Shown here piece by piece: positions 3,172 to 22,964 of a stretch of 26,401 nt of DNA. Positions within the stretch are counted from its first letter, which is position 1; every line of letters starts with the position of its first letter. The stretch lies in UHGV virus genome UHGV-1485618. One strand, 5' to 3'. The stretch comes from a virus. The translations under genes and the position numbers were made by a program. The notes beneath the pieces were generated by a model. That model did not search any database. It was not told the DNA's origin and saw nothing but the letters and a program-made list of their open reading frames with translations.

Positions 3172-3342
3172 ATGACAAAACGTCGTAAGAAATACCAGGA
3201 AAAAGAAGAGATTCGACACCCTGATTCACCTGAGGGATTAGTGGTAGCCGCAGCAAATAACAGGGCGTTCGCAGAGCGCCTTGTTGGTGTTTACAGACTA
3301 GCCAAAGCAGGAGTGAAACATGGGCGTCGTTAAGTTAGCTGA
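3172..3342 (+). CDS. Possible small basic protein, 56 aa, between cII and the replication initiator
   Basis: ATG at 3172 preceded by AGGAGT; [56 protein letters not shown] overlaps the O-like start by 23 nt. Below the 60-aa cutoff of the supplied track. Confidence 0.3.
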
Positions 3343-4150
3343 TTACAGGCCTCAACTGGAGGTCGTGGAGCATCGCGTGGCAGAACTCGAAGATGGCTAC
3401 ACTCGGACTGCAAACACACTGTTAGAAGCCGCCATGCTTTCTGGGCTTACTCTACATCAATTACTGATTGTTATGGCTGTGTGGCGCAAGACATACGGTT
3501 ACAACAAAAAAATAGATTGGATCGGAAACGAACAGTTCGCTGAACTCACTGGCATGGCACCAACCAAATGCTCTACCGCCAAAAACGAGCTTATCAGAAT
3601 GGGAGTTCTCATTCAGGTGGGGCGTCAAGTTGGTATGAATACAAACATTTCCGAGTGGAAAACGAAAGTTAACGGATTCGGTAAAACATTTACTAATTCG
3701 GTAAAACAAACCTTCACCAAATCGGTAAAAAGCAATTTACCGAATCAGTCAAACACAAAAGACAATATACAAAAGACAATAAATACAAATACCCCCTTAC
3801 CCCCTAACGGGGGCGGCGATGGGCAGGTTAAACCTGAACGTCGAAAGGCAGAACGAATCGACTACGAATCCTTCCTGAACGCCTACAACACCGAAGTCGG
3901 TGACAGACTTCCACACGCTGTTGCGGTCAACGAGAAACGAAAACGCCGCCTGAAGAAAATCATCCCGCAACTGAAAACGCCAAACGTGGACGGTTTCAGA
4001 GCGTATGTCAGGGCGTTTGTACATCAGGCCAAGCCGTTTTACTTCGGAGACAACGACACGGGCTGGACGGCTGATTTTGATTACCTGCTGAGAGAAGACT
4101 CGTTAACGGGAGTTCGGGAAGGGAAGTTTGCAGACAGGGGGATTGCATGA
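3320..4150 (+). CDS. Replication initiation protein, lambda O / P22 gp18-like
   Basis: N-terminal region resembles lambda O, iterons are embedded mid-gene, and the gene is followed directly by a DnaB-family helicase. Confidence 0.85.
3672..3795. repeat. Phage replication origin: three direct iterons (TCGGTAAAA core) plus one inverted copy, followed by an AT-rich tract
   Basis: ATTCGGTAAAACA (3676), AATTCGGTAAAACA (3696), AATCGGTAAAAAG (3720) at roughly 20-22 bp spacing; inverted TTTACCGAAT at 3737-3746; AT-rich 3747-3795. Mirrored in the protein as [14 protein letters not shown]. Confidence 0.7.
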
Positions 4151-5523
4151 AACAGGATATCGAAGCGAGCGTTATCGGTGGCCTGCTGATTGGTGGATTA
4201 ACACCAACTGCCAGTGACGTTCTGGCAACGCTGGAGCCGGAAGCGTTTTCAATTCCGCTCTACCGGAAAGCCTTCGAGGTTATCCGCAAGCAGGCGCGAA
4301 ACAGAAACCTAATCGACGCGCTGATGGTTGCCGAGGAGTGCGGAGAGGAGCATTTCACGTCAATCCTGATGACCAGCAAAAACTGCCCGAGTGCCGCAAA
4401 CCTGAAGGGATATGCCGGAATGGTCGCGGATAACTATCACCGCCGTCTGGTGCTGGAAATCATGGATGAAATGCGTGAACCAATTCAGAGAGGAACCATC
4501 GACGCATCGAGTCAGGCGATGGATGAACTTGTAAAGCGTCTTTCAGCCATCAGAAAGCCACGTGACGAGGTTAAACCTGTACGGTTAGGGGAAATCATCA
4601 CTGACTACACTGACACGCTTGACAGGCGTCTGAGGAACGGAGAAGAGTCCGATACCCTGAAGACCGGAATCGAAGAACTTGATGCTATCACCGGAGGGAT
4701 GAACGCGGAAGACCTGGTGATAATAGCTGCTCGTCCTGGTATGGGGAAAACCGAACTGGCGCTGAAGATTGCCGAAGGCGTTGCAAGCCGCGTTATTCCT
4801 GGTTCTGACGTCCGGCGCGGAGTATTGATTTTCTCAATGGAAATGAGCGCATTGCAGATTGCAGAGCGAAGCATTGCCAACGCCGGGAGGATGTCGGTTA
4901 GCGTACTGCGAAATCCTGCATCGATGGATGACGAAGGCTGGGCGCGTGTTGCTAACGGCATGAGTCAGCTTGCAGATTTGGATGTATGGGTAGTCGATGC
5001 CTCGCGGTTATCGGTAGAAGAAATTCGCTCAATCGCAGAGCGGCACAAACAGGAAAATCCAAACCTGTCACTCATCATGGCGGATTATCTTGGCCTGATT
5101 GAGAAGCCTAAAGCAGACCGCAACGACCTCGCAATTGCTCACATCTCAGGAAGCCTGAAGGCGATGGCGAAAGACCTGAAAACGCCTGTTATCTCCCTAA
5201 GTCAGCTTTCGCGCGATGTTGAGAAGCGACCAAACAAACGCCCGACAAACGCAGATTTGCGTGATTCAGGAAGCATTGAGCAGGACGCAGACTCAATCAT
5301 CATGCTCTATCGGGAAGCGGTATATGACGAGAACAGTAGCGCCGCGCCATTTGCTGAAATCATCGTGACGAAAAACCGTTTTGGCTCGCTTGGTACGGTT
5401 TACCAGCGGTTCTGTAACGGACACTTTGTTGCATGTGACCAGGATGAAGCCAGACAGATTTGCACAGCATCAAATGCACCTGCTGCGCGTGGCAGACGAT
5501 ATGCACAAGGGGCTGACGTATGA
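4147..5523 (+). CDS. Replicative DNA helicase, DnaB family (P22 gp12-like), 458 aa
   Basis: Walker A ([10 protein letters not shown]) and DnaB-like helicase motifs; start overlaps the O-like stop. Confidence 0.9.
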
Positions 5524-7996: not shown

Positions 7997-8355
7997 ACGA
8001 ATATCAGTTTGTGCTTCCGTACCCGCCGTCGGTGAACACCTACTGGCGAAGACGGGAAAGCCAATACTACATCAGCGATAAAGGCCAGAAATACCGAAAA
8101 GACGTTCAGCAAATCATTCGCCAACTCAAGTTAGACATTTTCACCAAATCACGACTCCGCATCAAAGTCATCGCAGACGTTCCAGATTCCCGCCGCCGCG
8201 ACCTCGACAACATCCTGAAAGGTTTACTCGACTCCCTTATCCACGCCGGATTTGCGGAAGACGACGAGCAATTCGATGACATTCGCGTAATTCGTGGTGT
8301 GAAAGTACCAGGCGGACGGCTTGGAATAAAAATCACCGAACTGGAGAACGTATGA
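7993..8355 (+). CDS. rusA: RusA-family Holliday junction resolvase
   Basis: 120 aa with the RusA-like motif PDSRRRDLDNILKGLLDSL and family-typical length; ATGA overlap with the ybcO-like stop. Confidence 0.9.
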   Translation: MNEYQFVLPYPPSVNTYWRRRESQYYISDKGQKYRKDVQQIIRQLKLDIFTKSRLRIKVIADVPDSRRRDLDNILKGLLDSLIHAGFAEDDEQFDDIRVIRGVKVPGGRLGIKITELENV

Positions 8356-13036: not shown

Positions 13037-13525
13037 ATGGCAGCACCAAAGGGCAACCGATTTTGGGAGGCCCGCAGTAGTCATGGGCGAAATCCTAAAT
13101 TCGAATCGCCTGAGGCGCTGTGGGCTGCTTGTTGTGAATACTTCGAGTGGGTGGAAGCTAACCCGCTATGGGAGATGAGGGCGTTCTCGTATCAGGGTGA
13201 AGTGATACAAGAGCCTATCGCCAAGATGCGAGCGATGACCATTACCGGCCTCACTCTGTTCATTGATGTGACGCTTGAAACATGGCGCACATATCGCCTG
13301 CGAGAAGATTTATCTGAAGTCGTTACGCGAGCAGAACAGGTCATCTACGACCAGAAATTCTCTGGCGCAGCCGCTGACCTTCTCAACGCTAACATCATCG
13401 CCCGTGATTTGGGCCTCAAAGAGCAGTCGCAAGTTGAAGACGTGACACCTGATAAGGGAGATCGCGATAAGCGGCGCTCTCGTATCAAGGAGCTATTCAA
13501 CCGTGGAACTGGACGCGATTCTTGA
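13037..13525 (+). CDS. Terminase small subunit (P22 gp3 type)
   Basis: 162-aa translation [47 protein letters not shown]... matches P22 gp3 from memory; contains a pac-like sequence. Confidence 0.9.
13304..13325 (+). other. pac site (P22 type) inside the terminase small-subunit gene
   Basis: GAAGATTTATCTGAAGTCGTTA (followed by CGCGAG) matches the P22 pac sequence as I remember it. Confidence 0.65.
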
Positions 13526-14999
13526 TAACCTGAGCGACGAAGAGCAAATCGAATTGCTCGAGCTACTCGAAGAAGAAGAGAACTACCGGAACACACACCT
13601 GCTATATGAATTTACGCCATACAGCAAACAGCGTGAGTTCATCGACGCCGGACATGACTATCCAGAGCGATGTTTTATGGCTGGTAACCAGCTTGGTAAG
13701 TCATTTACTGGTGCTGCTGAAGTCGCGTTTCACCTTACAGGGCGTTATCCGGGCACAAAAGGCTATCCTGCTGATGGTAAATATGGCGGTGAGTGGAAAG
13801 GTAAGCGTTTCTATGAGCCTGTTGTCTTTTGGATTGGTGGCGAGACAAACGAGACTGTAACCAAAACGACTCAACGCATCCTGTGCGGTCGTATCGAAGA
13901 GAATGACGAGCCTGGCTACGGTTCCATACCGAAAGAGGACATCATTAGCTGGAAGAAGTCTCCTTTCTTTCCGAACCTTGTTGATCATCTTCTGGTTAAG
14001 CATCACACGGCTGATGGCGTTGAAGATGGCATTTCAATCTGCTACTTCAAACCATACTCTCAAGGCCGTGCTCGCTGGCAGGGTGACACAATCCACGGCG
14101 TGTGGTTTGACGAAGAGCCACCATACAGCATTTATGGCGAAGGTCTTACCCGTACCAACAAATACGGGCAATTCTCAATTCTGACGTTTACCCCGCTGAT
14201 GGGGATGTCTGACGTTGTTACCAAGTTCCTGAAGAATCCCAGCAAGTCGCAGAAAGTGGTCAACATGACCATCTATGATGCTGAGCACTATACCGACGAG
14301 CAGAAAGAGCAAATCATCGCATCCTATCCCGAGCACGAGAGAGAGGCGCGTGCTCGCGGTATTCCTACGATGGGTAGCGGTCGAATCTTCCAGATACCGG
14401 AAGAGACGATTAAGTGTCAGCCGTTCGAGTGTCCTGATCACTTCTACGTCATCAATGCAATGGACTTCGGATGGGATCACCCACAGGCACATATCCAGCT
14501 TTGGTGGGATAAAGACGAGGACGTGATTTATCTTTCTCGCGTCTGGAAGGCCAAACAGAAGAAGGCGACAGAGGCATGGAGTGCTGTTAAAGCATGGAGC
14601 AAAAACACCCCTACGGCTTGGCCTCATGACGGGCATCAGCACGAAAAGGGAGGCGGCGCTCAGCTCAAGGAACAATACGCCGAAGCTGGGTTCGACATGT
14701 TGCCAGATCATGCAACATGGCCTGATGGAGGTAATGCGGTCGAACCCGGGATAGCAGAGATACGCGACATGATGCTCGACGGTCGTTTCAAGGTATTTAA
14801 CACCTGCGAGCCATTCTTTGAAGAGTTTCGTCTGTATCACCGCGATGAGAACGGGAAGATCGTCAAGCTAAATGACGACATCCTTTCTGCTGTTCGCTAT
14901 GGCTACATGATGAGGCGTTTTGCAATACAGATGCGAGACATCAAAGATCCTAAAGAGATTGATTACTCAAGCTACAACATACCTTGCGGAGTTGGATGA
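13503..14999 (+). CDS. Terminase large subunit (P22 gp2-like), 498 aa
   Basis: Size and position between small terminase and portal; ATPase and nuclease-type motifs; overlaps the small-subunit 3' end. Confidence 0.9.
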
Positions 15000-20137: not shown

Positions 20138-21556
20138 ATGCCGATTCAGCAACTTCCGCTTATGAAAGGTGTCGGCAAAGACTTTCGAAACGCCGACTAT
20201 ATCGACTATCTGCCAGTGAATATGCTGGCTACACCCAAAGAAATCCTCAACAGCAGCGGATATCTTCGATCATTCCCGGGCATTGCCAAACGTTCTGATG
20301 TGAACGGTGTATCTCGAGGCGTCGAGTACAACATGGCGCAGAATGCTGTTTATCGTGTGTGTGGTGGCAAGCTGTACAAAGGCGAAAGTGAAGTCGGTGA
20401 CGTCGCCGGAAGTGGTCGTGTATCAATGGCGCATGGTCGGACATCACAGGCGGTAGGCGTTAATGGTCAACTGGTCGAGTATCGCTATGATGGCACGGTT
20501 AAAACCGTATCAAACTGGCCTACAGACAGCGGATTCACGCAGTATGAGTTAGGCTCAGTCCGCGATATTACGCGCTTACGTGGGCGTTATGCGTGGTCAA
20601 AAGACGGAACTGATTCATGGTTCATCACTGACCTTGAAGACGAATCGCATCCTGACCGTTACAGCGCACAATATCGCGCAGAATCGCAGCCGGACGGCAT
20701 CATCGGCATAGGTACATGGCGAGACTTCATCGTCTGCTTTGGTTCATCGACGATTGAATATTTCTCCCTGACAGGCGCAACTACCGTTGGTGCTGCTTTG
20801 TATGTCGCGCAGCCATCGCTGATGGTGCAAAAAGGCATCGCCGGGACTTACTGCAAAACGCCGTTTGCTGATTCGTATGCGTTCATCAGCAATCCGGCAA
20901 CGGGTGCGCCGTCTGTGTACATCATCGGTTCCGGTCAGGTATCACCAATCGCCAGCGCGAGCATTGAGAAAATACTACGCTCCTACACTGCTGATGAACT
21001 GGCTGATGGCGTGATGGAATCGTTGCGGTTTGATGCGCATGAGCTGCTGATTATCCATCTTCCGCGCCATGTCCTCGTGTACGACGCATCTTCAAGTGCT
21101 AATGGTCCGCAATGGTGTGTACTGAAAACAGGCCTGTATGACGATGTGTACCGCGCTATCGACTTCATTTACGAAGGCAATCAGATAACGTGCGGCGATA
21201 AGCTGGAATCCGTGACCGGGAAATTGCAGTTCGATATATCTTCACAATACGAAAAACAACAAGAGCATATTTTATATTCCCCTCTAATAAAGGCTGATAA
21301 CGTTTTAATAAATGACCTTGAATTAGAAACATCTGGCGGCGTGTGTGATAGAATAGATAGAATATTTATATCAGCCACTACAGATGGAATTAATTACGGT
21401 CATGAGCAAATGGTTGTATTACAAAAACCATTTGTATATGACAATCGCGTTTTATGGCGAAGGGTTGGTCGAGTTAGACGCCTCATTGGATTTAAATTCA
21501 GAGTTATTGCAAAAGGTCCTGTTACATTATCAGGCCTTTCTATTCGTGTAACATAA
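20138..21556 (+). CDS. Tail hub protein, P22 gp10-like, 472 aa; the 3' ~300 nt are compositionally AT-rich
   Basis: Size and translation MPIQQLPLMKGVGKDFRNADYIDYLPVNMLATPKEIL match the gp10 family. Confidence 0.75.
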   Translation: MPIQQLPLMKGVGKDFRNADYIDYLPVNMLATPKEILNSSGYLRSFPGIAKRSDVNGVSRGVEYNMAQNAVYRVCGGKLYKGESEVGDVAGSGRVSMAHGRTSQAVGVNGQLVEYRYDGTVKTVSNWPTDSGFTQYELGSVRDITRLRGRYAWSKDGTDSWFITDLEDESHPDRYSAQYRAESQPDGIIGIGTWRDFIVCFGSSTIEYFSLTGATTVGAALYVAQPSLMVQKGIAGTYCKTPFADSYAFISNPATGAPSVYIIGSGQVSPIASASIEKILRSYTADELADGVMESLRFDAHELLIIHLPRHVLVYDASSSANGPQWCVLKTGLYDDVYRAIDFIYEGNQITCGDKLESVTGKLQFDISSQYEKQQEHILYSPLIKADNVLINDLELETSGGVCDRIDRIFISATTDGINYGHEQMVVLQKPFVYDNRVLWRRVGRVRRLIGFKFRVIAKGPVTLSGLSIRVT

Positions 21557-21577
21557 ATCGAAACTAAAGGAGTAGAT

Positions 21578-22123
21578 ATGTTGAGTGAAAACGCAAAAGA
21601 TATTCCTGGATATGAAGGTTTATATGCCGTAACAGAGGATGGGCGAGTATATTCTCACTCACGTGTTGTTAAGGCTGCACATGGCAGCACGCAACTCAGA
21701 AAGGGGCGCTGGTTAAAACAACACGAGAATAATAAAGGTTATCTATATTTGCCACTTAGTGTTGATGGAGTTAAAGTAAAATGGCTTGTGCATAGGCTTG
21801 TCGCTCTTGCTTTCGTCCCCAATCCAGAAGGCAAGCCGTTCATAAATCACATAGATAACAACCGAAAAAATAATAATGCTTCTAATTTAGAGTGGTGTAC
21901 TCAAAAGGAGAATATGAAGCATTGCTCATCTCAAGGCAGGGTGAAGTTTCCGGCTTTAAAAGGAGAAAATAATCCAATTTCAAAGCTCTCATATGAGCAA
22001 GTAATAGAAATAAAGAAATCAAAGGGAGTTAATCAAAGAGAGCTTGCTAAAAAATACTGTGTCAGTCAGACGGTGATTCACAATATCCAGTCTGGTAAAT
22101 CGTGGAGGCATGTTAATGGCTGA
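21578..22123 (+). CDS. HNH homing endonuclease with N-terminal NUMOD4-like motif, 181 aa
   Basis: [18 protein letters not shown] motif and H-N-N signature ([16 protein letters not shown]); AT-rich; inserted between gp10-like and tail-needle genes and overlapping the needle start. Confidence 0.8.
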
Positions 22124-22964
22124 TTCGAATCTCAATACACCTGTTATTGTTCAGGCCACGCGGCTCGATACATCAATCCTTCCACGCAATATCTTCTCGC
22201 AGTCATATCTGCTGTACGTTATCGCACAGGGAGCTGATGTTGGTAACGTGGCGAACAAGGCCAACGAGGCCGGGCAGGGCGCTTATGACGCACAAGCCAG
22301 GAACGATGAGCAGGATGTGATTCTGGTCGATCACGAAATTCGACTGGCATCGGCTGAAGCGAAGATACAGGACCACGAAACAAGGATCACTAACGCAGAA
22401 GCGGCGATAGTCGGCCTTGATTCGCGATTAACGACAGCAGAAAACGATATTGATTATCTGACTGATGAAGTTGTCGCCATTCAAAACACGCTTTCAGACC
22501 ATGAAGCGCGCATTGATGCTCTGGAGTATGCCACTACTCGCAAAAAGTCAGAGGTTGTTTACTCTGGCGTATCAGTAACAATCCCGACAGCGCCGACCAA
22601 CCTTGTTAGCCTGCTGAAAACGCTCACGCCGTCATCCGGCACGTTGGCACCATTCTTCGACACTGTTAACAACAAGATGGTTGTGTTCAACGAGAACAAA
22701 ACCTTGTTCTTCAAGCTGTCGATCGTCGGGACGTGGCCCAGCGGAACCGCCAACAGGTCAATGCAGCTAACATTCTCCGGCTCTGTTCCTGATACGCTGG
22801 TCAGCAGTAGTAATGCGGCGACAACAACCGACAACATCCTGTTAGCTACGTTCTTCAGCGTGGATAAAGACGGCTTTCTTGCCACAAATGGCAGCACGTT
22901 AACCATTCAGTCTAATGGTGCGGCGTTTACTGCCACAACCATCAAAATCATTGCGGAGCAGTGA
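22116..22964 (+). CDS. Tail needle (P22 gp26-like N-terminal coiled coil) with a divergent C-terminal knob-type domain
   Basis: N-terminus [43 protein letters not shown] resembles P22 gp26; total length about 282 aa. Confidence 0.85.

Follow-up and report, generated by a model that had tools for sequence, protein, structure and literature searches.

In the viral genome UHGV-1485618, a stretch of 26,401 nucleotides (nt) was analysed (referred to below, at its full length, as the window). It belongs to a temperate P22/Sf6-like phage or prophage, and in its tail operon, between the gene for the head closure/tail hub protein gp10 (gene 10) and the tail needle gene, lies a gene for an HNH endonuclease. 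We consider it likely that positions 21238-22123 form a composite mobile cassette, in which a free-standing homing endonuclease gene of the I-HmuI type is joined to a diverged, AT-rich end of gene 10, and that this cassette spreads by homing. The window carries one of two forms of the endonuclease gene found at this place, referred to as allele A; the other is allele B.

Results

Composition and anatomy of the cassette

When calculated in 200-nt windows, GC content lies at 0.51-0.54 as far as about 21100, is reduced to 0.355-0.415 between about 21200 and 22100, and regains 0.52 at 22100; the drop, from about 0.52 to 0.36, extends across 21238-22112. Among 880-nt stretches of the 26.4-kb window, the one that begins at 21221 has the lowest GC content (0.37, versus a mean of 0.488 with a standard deviation of 0.028), and it alone falls below 0.42. 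GC content at third codon positions (GC3) is 0.53 in the resident part of gp10, 0.20 in the replaced gp10 end, 0.35 in the endonuclease gene, and 0.56 in the needle gene. An earlier note on this DNA had described an AT-rich tract reaching into the 3' end of the gp10 gene, and the sliding GC profile, which is clearly not uniform, bears this out.

The anatomy of the region was established by comparison with P22, HK620, and Sf6, whose gp10 has the same length and was compared codon by codon. Up to nt 21237, the window gp10 is 100% identical to that of Sf6 in amino acid sequence and 92-98% identical in nucleotide sequence. The lineage then switches abruptly, between TTCGATAT and ATCTTCAC. The last 319 nt of the gene, with a GC content of 0.35, are 58% identical to Sf6 at the nucleotide level and 64% at the amino acid level (53-62% and 60-73%, respectively, along the tract), and their synonymous sites are saturated relative to Sf6. 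Over the last 105 residues, identity is 93% between Sf6 and P22, and the window protein is 64% identical to Sf6 and 68% to P22. The gene as a whole (20138-21556) matches Pfam family Phage_stabilise (PF11134) with an E-value of 3.7e-283. The claim that the last ~300 nt of the gene are low in GC and yet code for a gp10-like protein was therefore correct. Homology to Sf6 resumes exactly at the needle start (Sf6 GAGTAATGGCGGATTCG versus window GTTAATGGCTGATTCG). From these alignments, we conclude that the cassette is best described as a replacement of the 319-nt gp10 end by four joined pieces, and not as a simple insertion.

The gp10 and needle ORFs (open reading frames) are both complete, and the endonuclease gene has its own Shine-Dalgarno sequence, ATG, and stop codon. 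The segment at 22103-22123 supplies the needle Shine-Dalgarno sequence GGAGG (22104-22108), the needle ATG (22116), and the endonuclease stop codon TGA (22121-22123); cassette-free phages carry AAGGATTGAGTAATGG in its place. The needle gene actually starts at ATG 22116, 7 nt after GGAGG; this start gives MADSNLN, as in Sf6, and all relatives agree on it. The endonuclease ORF overlaps the needle gene, as the earlier note had stated, and the overlap amounts to 8 nt (ATGGCTGA), or to 14 nt if the needle is counted from the first in-frame ATG at 22110. A mechanically produced list of ORFs places the needle start at this upstream ATG and not at 22116.

No signal above shuffled expectation was found in a search for promoters or terminators in the cassette, and the endonuclease gene is probably read within the late operon. 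A search for group I and group II introns and other RNA families in 20900-22500 yielded none, the one snoRNA match (E = 0.35) being at chance level. The features of the region are listed in Table 1. Among wider neighbours, Pfam identifies gp4 upstream of gp10 and a gp14-like DUF2824 protein downstream of the needle. A 9-mer, GATAGAATA, which as a pair encodes DRIDRI, is present in two tandem copies at 21347-21364, inside the low-GC gp10 end; in locus L093, an allele B locus, there are three copies of GATAGAATA, which results in an in-frame 3-codon insertion in gp10.

Table 1. Features of the gp10/needle region, in window coordinates
Feature	Positions	Strand	Basis
gp10 (head closure/tail hub, PF11134), resident Sf6-like part, codons 1-367	20138..21237	+	Identity to Sf6; GC 0.51, GC3 0.53
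gp10 3' end, last 105 codons and stop, foreign low-GC lineage; proposed co-converted/immunity segment	21238..21556	+	Divergence; linkage to the endonuclease
Nearly invariant 38-nt block of cassette-free alleles (CGTGAGCAGATGATTGA.CAGAATGAACCGTTCGTTTA), candidate endonuclease target	21401..21438		Conservation
21-nt spacer ATCGAAACTAAAGGAGTAGAT with Shine-Dalgarno sequence AAGGAG (21567-21572) for the endonuclease gene	21557..21577	+	Read from the sequence
Free-standing HNH homing endonuclease gene, allele A, 181 amino acids	21578..22123	+	Pfam; similarity to I-HmuI; AlphaFold model
Shared 3' end of alleles A and B (TGGAGGCATGTTAATGGCTGA), last 21 nt of the endonuclease ORF	22103..22123	+	Identical in all A and B loci
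Tail needle gene (Sf6-type knob), resident backbone	22116..22964	+	Pfam Phage_tail_NK (PF16532), E = 2.7e-107

The endonuclease

The ORF at 21578-22123, which the earlier note had read as HNH/NUMOD4-like, indeed codes for a 181-residue protein with Pfam matches to NUMOD4 (residues 7-60, E = 2.4e-11, 44.1 bits against a cut-off of 23.4) and HNH_3 (residues 70-113, E = 1.7e-10, above the gathering score). There is also a weak C-terminal match to a helix-turn-helix (HTH) motif, and a three-helix HTH is located at residues about 139-171. By sequence, I-HmuI (PDB 1U3E) is the sole significant relative of solved structure (E = 2.3e-12, about 27% identity). Equivalents of I-HmuI residues His75, which is catalytic, Asn87, and Asn96 are retained as H91, N103, and N112; together with N90, they are invariant across 42 homologues, and the catalytic His and metal-binding Asn of the HNH motif are thereby conserved. 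In an AlphaFold model of the protein (predicted local distance difference test score, pLDDT, of 89.8), beta strands over residues 6-70 are followed by the HNH core, and the C-terminal helices span residues 139-147, 153-160, and 164-171. A Foldseek search with this model retrieved I-HmuI along its full length (1u3e_M; E = 5.3e-9, probability 1.00, 182 aligned columns, template modelling (TM) score of 0.52-0.54), with no other match below 1e-3. Based on the sequence matches and the model, we conclude that the ORF codes for a homologue of I-HmuI-type HNH homing endonucleases with a predicted NUMOD4-HNH_3-HTH architecture.

The ratio of nonsynonymous to synonymous substitution rates (dN/dS) of the endonuclease gene is 0.08 in comparison with locus L021 and 0.06 in comparison with a copy from Salmonella, values that indicate purifying selection on the protein. 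The ORFs of alleles A and B are all intact except where they are disrupted by the insertion sequence (IS) IS1. In two sources, L020 (about 3355-4130) and E. coli M160133, allele A is inactivated by an IS1 copy that follows codon 5. No further copy of the endonuclease gene was found within the 26.4-kb window.

The gene is already annotated in RefSeq in P22-like prophages of E. coli, by domain name only ("NUMOD4 domain-containing protein" or "HNH endonuclease"). A literature search for homing endonucleases in P22-like phages or at the tail needle, made within one library, revealed no description of the cassette, the linked gp10 end, or the alleles.

Presence, absence, and linkage

In P22, gene 10 ends at 8206 and gene 26 starts at 8210, with no gene between them; the gp10 and needle genes of Sf6 abut, with nothing between, and HK620 is likewise without a gene at this position. 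A search of 50,697 phage records identified a sole carrier of the same cassette, Escherichia phage HZ41 (OM022251), whose endonuclease protein is 100% identical to that of the window.

A survey of 5,426 complete E. coli genomes, 915 of which hold the region, detected the low-GC gp10 end at an identity of at least 94% in 52 genomes. Sixteen of these carry the allele A endonuclease gene (at least 98.5% nucleotide identity), and the other 36 carry allele B at the same place. The lists thus coincide (16 + 36 = 52), and the low-GC gp10 end never occurs without an endonuclease gene. Conversely, neither allele occurs at the gp10/needle junction of a complete E. coli genome without the low-GC gp10 end.

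The same picture emerged from a wider sample of IMG/VR and GenBank loci, among which 135 contained both a gp10 anchor and a needle anchor. No insert was present in 102 loci, where the gp10 3' end has a GC content of 0.48-0.52 and is 54-58% identical to that of the window. Allele A was found in 13 loci and allele B in 15, all with a low-GC gp10 3' end (0.34-0.37); a low-GC end was also present in one locus with allele A disrupted by IS1 and in one with allele B containing a 9-nt in-frame duplication. Three more loci have a third gene as a clean 497-nt insertion, and the gp10 3' end there is of normal GC content. The low-GC gp10 end is therefore absent from all 102 cassette-free loci and present in every locus bearing the A or B cassette. 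The earlier note had stated that P22 has no counterpart of the ORF at this position, which proved true of P22 and of the 102 insert-free loci. The comparisons indicate that this low-GC end of gp10 is of foreign origin and in strict linkage with an endonuclease gene.

Edges, flanks, and spread over backbones

The left edge of the cassette is variable. It is located at 21238 in the window, in several other A loci, and in all B loci, and at about 21268 in HZ41 and most A loci (…CAGGAACAT followed by ATTTTATATTC), which keep backbone-type sequence for 30 nt further; between the two positions, each carrier matches its own local backbone variant. On the right, the sequence GGAGGCATGT(T/G)AATGGCTGA is common to all carriers, and the next 12 nt, TTCGAATCTCAA, are found in all of them but L019. 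The right edge is thus within about 20 nt of the needle start, and beyond it carriers are as diverse as cassette-free loci. Aligning the region with relatives that lack the HNH gene, as the earlier note had suggested, therefore did map the boundaries, at one of two positions on the left and near the needle start on the right.

Diversity was expressed as mean pairwise identity among the 13 allele A loci and compared with that among cassette-free loci. Identity among allele A loci was 98.9% for the endonuclease ORF (for which a cassette-free value is not applicable) and 97.4% for the gp10 3' end, versus 92.9% for the gp10 3' end of cassette-free loci. The flanks did not differ between the two groups: the values were 93.7% versus 93.8% for the upstream 1 kb of gp10 and 73.7% versus 73.9% for nt 21-320 of the needle gene. 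The closest neighbours of carriers, as judged by flank sequence, are mostly cassette-free loci. The cassette is about 90% identical in L021, whose gp10 backbone is only about 78% identical to that of the window, and it also occurs in Salmonella (L190). We conclude from these sequence relationships that the cassette has moved between diverse backbones and that its history differs from that of its flanks. Since the flanks of carriers match those of cassette-free phages in diversity, the description of the site as a mobile-element junction inside the tail operon is upheld.

Other endonucleases in and around gene 10

The allele B product (WP_000947776) is a 177-residue protein with NUMOD4 and HNH_3 matches and about 45% protein identity to allele A; an example is found in E. 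coli O111:H- 11128 (L005, 2841-3374), and others in L006, L007, and L008. The two alleles share the gp10 end, the spacer, and the first 27 nt and last 21 nt of the ORF, and are strongly different between these. In ETEC6333 and ETEC6334, about 1.4 kb of extra sequence is present between the gp10 end and allele B.

The third endonuclease gene found at the junction codes for a 164-residue protein with HNH_3 and AP2 domains (phage vB_EcoP-683R2, ON470594, L004 2160-2654; also L042 and L147). It duplicates GGATTGAGTAATGG, and its protein product ends in QRIE before the stop codon, mimicking the gp10 C-terminus. In ON470594, this gene is labelled "endolysin", a label that looks wrong. Taken together, the loci indicate that the gp10/needle junction is a hot spot where at least three endonuclease genes have inserted.

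A related endonuclease gene is located inside the 5' end of gene 10, in E. coli K56-43-un (L007, 1228-2020), Salmonella phage UPF_BP1 (L003), and L024-L050; besides UPF_BP1 and K56-43-un, it was found in 26 IMG/VR loci. Its product is 54% identical overall to the allele A protein. A 93-nt remnant of the original gene 10 start lies upstream of the endonuclease gene, and a complete gp10 gene downstream. The first 120 nt of this downstream gp10 gene are 61% identical to Sf6 and 98-100% identical among carriers, and they are linked to the endonuclease in 26 of 26 loci. In its sequence organization, the 5' endonuclease is a mirror image of the window cassette, and some genomes have both cassettes, so that gene 10 is bracketed. 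Fragments of gene 10 that this 5' cassette leaves behind are annotated as pseudogenes.

The spacer leader that precedes allele A also precedes allele B, the endonuclease at the gene 10 5' end, and distant homologues. The spacer plus the first 47 codons of allele A (window 21555-21717) are 88% identical in nucleotide sequence to the corresponding segment of L003 (NC_047875, 20409-20572). The contrast between this value and the 54% identity of the whole proteins suggests that an N-terminal module has been exchanged between endonuclease genes.

In some Sf6-like phages, the genes for the Q antiterminator and the holin flank a homologue about 50% identical (phage N7, L191 1501-2022; L051-L057). This is a third site used by the endonuclease family in this phage group.

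Age and source of the cassette

Distant homologues of the endonuclease, at 85, 75, 68, and 61% identity, are all located between gp10 and needle genes of P22-like prophages. The 85, 75, and 61% homologues follow the same 21-nt spacer pattern (ATCGAAAC…GGAGTAGAT), and the 68% homologue, in a Providencia rettgeri prophage, belongs to a locus with a related 27-nt spacer. In the 85, 75, and 61% types, the C-terminal 105 residues of gp10 are 84-86% identical to those of the window versus 62-65% to those of Sf6 and P22, and the GC content drops at the same place in gp10, from 0.53-0.57 in the N-terminal part to 0.38-0.42 in the C-terminal part. The Providencia prophage has a uniform GC content of 0.44 across gp10, with no drop; its gp10 end is 70% identical to that of the window versus 62% to Sf6 and P22.

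Since distant homologues keep the same junction and the same gp10-end lineage, the cassette is old and cannot be accounted for by one recent conversion. The sequence data indicate that it is a composite unit whose gp10 end diverged together with the endonuclease lineage, and not a fresh import. The earlier note had viewed the low-GC end of gp10 as a co-conversion tract imported with the endonuclease. Part of this view stands, since the tract is foreign, is linked to an endonuclease gene in 52 of 52 cases, and has a variable left end. A fresh import in a single event is not supported, and there is no linkage into homologous flanks.

From the Providencia locus, an origin in phages whose hosts have a lower GC content may be suspected. 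The Providencia rettgeri prophage itself was rejected as a donor of the gp10 end, being only 70% identical and less AT-rich. A search for a full-length donor gp10 with one genome per species returned just a 66% relative, in Citrobacter; in tblastn against the 50,697 phage records, no match fell between those of HZ41 (97%) and the P22 group (68%); and a large protein search yielded partial proteins only. Matches to the gp10 end in APSE, Sodalis, and Proteus phages are at 60-67%. A 75% match, P0003, was also rejected as a donor, for it is the same cassette in an error-rich, frameshifted assembly.

Two further observations concern the Providencia rettgeri prophage (CP109846). In L192, the gp10 call at 3180-4973 is 597 residues long instead of 472 and overlaps the gp4 gene, which represents either an N-terminal extension or a start called too early. 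In addition, an IS element with an rve transposase interrupts the injection-protein genes of this prophage.

Discussion

Proposed mechanism

Our model of the cassette's spread follows, for cleavage activity, target position, and the homing step, the analogy with I-HmuI and with intronless homing by the seg and mob endonucleases of T4. A carrier would meet a cassette-free P22-like genome, either in co-infection or as a phage encountering a prophage, and its enzyme would nick or cut the cassette-free allele in or near the gp10 3' end or at the gp10/needle junction; repair would then copy the carrier allele. The gp10 end of the cassette, being about 58% identical to resident alleles, would escape its own enzyme and make the carrier immune. 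Crossovers would be unable to resolve inside this end, and it would therefore be inherited with the endonuclease gene as one unit, with exchange points at the left edge of the block (21238 or about 21268) and at its right edge (about 22116-22135). In our proposal, the 58% identity accounts for three features at once: the linkage is strict, the edges hardly vary, and the flanks contain no graded tract. The cassette is spliced into the late operon with its own ribosome-binding site; its last 21 nt rebuild the needle ribosome-binding site and start codon, and gp10 and needle therefore stay intact. Judging by the intact ORFs and the dN/dS values of 0.06-0.08, the element is probably active, as the earlier note had assumed.

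A speculative candidate for the target is the 38-nt block of cassette-free alleles equivalent to window positions 21401-21438. Each of its sites is at least 97% conserved in 87 unique cassette-free sequences, and the window allele differs from it at 13 of 37 scored positions.

A broader view can be put forward only tentatively, and we regard it as doubtful. Gene 10 may be a battleground of related endonucleases, each permanently paired with a recoded, "immune" adjacent end of gene 10, namely the 3' end in the case of alleles A and B and the first 120 nt in the case of the 5' type. Three types would then compete for the gp10/needle junction, a bracketed gene 10 could be driven as a small "HEG island" (HEG, homing endonuclease gene), and the cassette would be a two-part unit co-evolving across genera (Escherichia, Salmonella, Providencia), rather than a by-product of one conversion event.

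Evidence against homing and alternative explanations

Several observations weigh against spread by homing. The equivalent of I-HmuI Asp74 is Asn in the window endonuclease, and several endonuclease copies have been inactivated by IS1. The cassette is present in only about 6% of the E. coli genomes that hold the region, unlike what would be expected of unopposed drive. Cassette-associated polymorphism was sought in 400 nt upstream and 150 nt downstream, and the only such site, T22121, belongs to the endonuclease stop codon; because homologous flanks are otherwise free of it, there is no classical graded co-conversion tract. Finally, P22-like phages are mosaic anyway, and the needle gene is equally mosaic without any endonuclease, so general recombination alone could move the block.

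The last point leads to the best of the alternatives, which we nevertheless find improbable: the block may be a passive mosaic segment that came from some P22-like phage of lower GC content through ordinary recombination, homologous or illegitimate, with the endonuclease inactive or irrelevant. The strong mosaicism of needle and gp10 flanks without an endonuclease, the lack of linkage past the block, and the low frequency in E. coli are all as this explanation would have them. It does not readily account for the intact ORFs and dN/dS of 0.06-0.08 across carriers, for the presence of three unrelated or diverged endonuclease genes at one junction, or for the mirrored cassette at the other end of gene 10. 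It is also at odds with the far lower diversity of the cassette compared with the allelic resident segment (97% versus 93% identity) and with a linkage between endonuclease and gp10 end that holds down to 61% protein identity.

It is more unlikely still that the HNH protein serves the phage and is kept for its benefit rather than as a selfish element, whether as a packaging helper, like the HNH proteins beside the terminases of cos phages, or as a weapon against the DNA of competing phages. Purifying selection on the protein would agree with such a role, as would likely expression from the late operon, given the gene's own ribosome-binding site and no terminator in front of it; marker exclusion by I-HmuI-type enzymes is also known (PMC2988022). 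However, the gene is 6.6 kb from the terminase genes (13037-14999), and the large majority of close relatives do without it, including P22, Sf6, and HK620, which assemble and package normally; a weapon that cuts the cassette-free allele would, mechanistically, be the same thing as homing.

An origin of the AT-rich gp10 end in place, beside the inserted gene, through relaxed selection or AT-biased mutation can be practically dismissed: the GC3 of the tract is below that of the endonuclease gene (0.20 versus 0.35) and no full-length donor gp10 was found, but the boundary is sharp to a few nucleotides, the tract protein is under purifying selection (dN/dS of 0.08 versus L021), the same lineage is found in backbones 78-82% identical in protein, Sf6 and P22 are 93% identical here with the tract at 64-68% from both, and the gp10 end beside the third endonuclease type, which uses this very site, is normal.

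Significance and comparison with known systems

If the cassette does spread by homing, it offers a concrete example, amenable to genetics, of intronless homing among temperate P22/Sf6-like phages, where carrier HZ41 can be set against cassette-free Sf6, HK620, and P22, which are near-identical outside the cassette. It also ties part of the mosaicism of the tail operon, the abrupt lineage change inside gp10, to a probably selfish nuclease gene. In addition, the analysis exposed problems of annotation, i.e., an endonuclease recorded as an "endolysin" and gene 10 fragments recorded as pseudogenes. Endonuclease genes beside essential phage genes, domain shuffling, and shared sites are already known (PMC2988022; PMC10448857), and the cassette, though clear-cut, is an ordinary representative of an established type of mobile element and changes no current concept.

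The closest relative of known structure, I-HmuI of Bacillus phage SPO1, has the same domain order, with an N-terminal NUMOD4 beta-sheet, an HNH beta-beta-alpha-metal core, and a C-terminal HTH. I-HmuI is encoded within a group I intron, whereas the window gene is free-standing between two genes. A gene for an HNH protein associated with the terminases of cos phages (the HK97 gp74 type) would adjoin terminase genes and be present in all related phages; neither is true of the window gene.

In its genetic arrangement, the cassette resembles the seg and mob genes of T-even phages. In intronless homing of these genes, the target is in a neighbouring gene of endonuclease-free genomes, and when the cut is repaired, the endonuclease gene and the donor sequence beside it are copied; one position may be taken by different endonuclease genes, as in the replacement of mobC and mobE by SegH and Hef (PMC2988022). 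The window gene, too, lies between conserved essential genes, is present or absent in close relatives, and is co-inherited with a donor flank; for the T-even systems, the standard model has the carrier protected by a neighbouring gene that differs in sequence. Their hosts, however, are virulent T4-like phages rather than a temperate P22/Sf6-like phage or prophage, and the flank involved there amounts to a few polymorphisms, whereas the one linked to the window endonuclease is a 319-nt gene end at 58% identity, which has remained with this endonuclease lineage through long divergence.

Finally, endonuclease genes at boundaries of genetic exchange and "HEG islands" have been described (Barth, Dunham and Seed 2023; PMC10448857). 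As in those cases, the window endonuclease adjoins essential structural genes, and domains are shuffled between endonucleases; in some genomes, two endonuclease genes bracket gene 10. The islands contain endonucleases of the T5orf172 and IPA-HNH families and exceed 10 kb, whereas the window cassette is a NUMOD4-HNH_3 unit of less than 1 kb.

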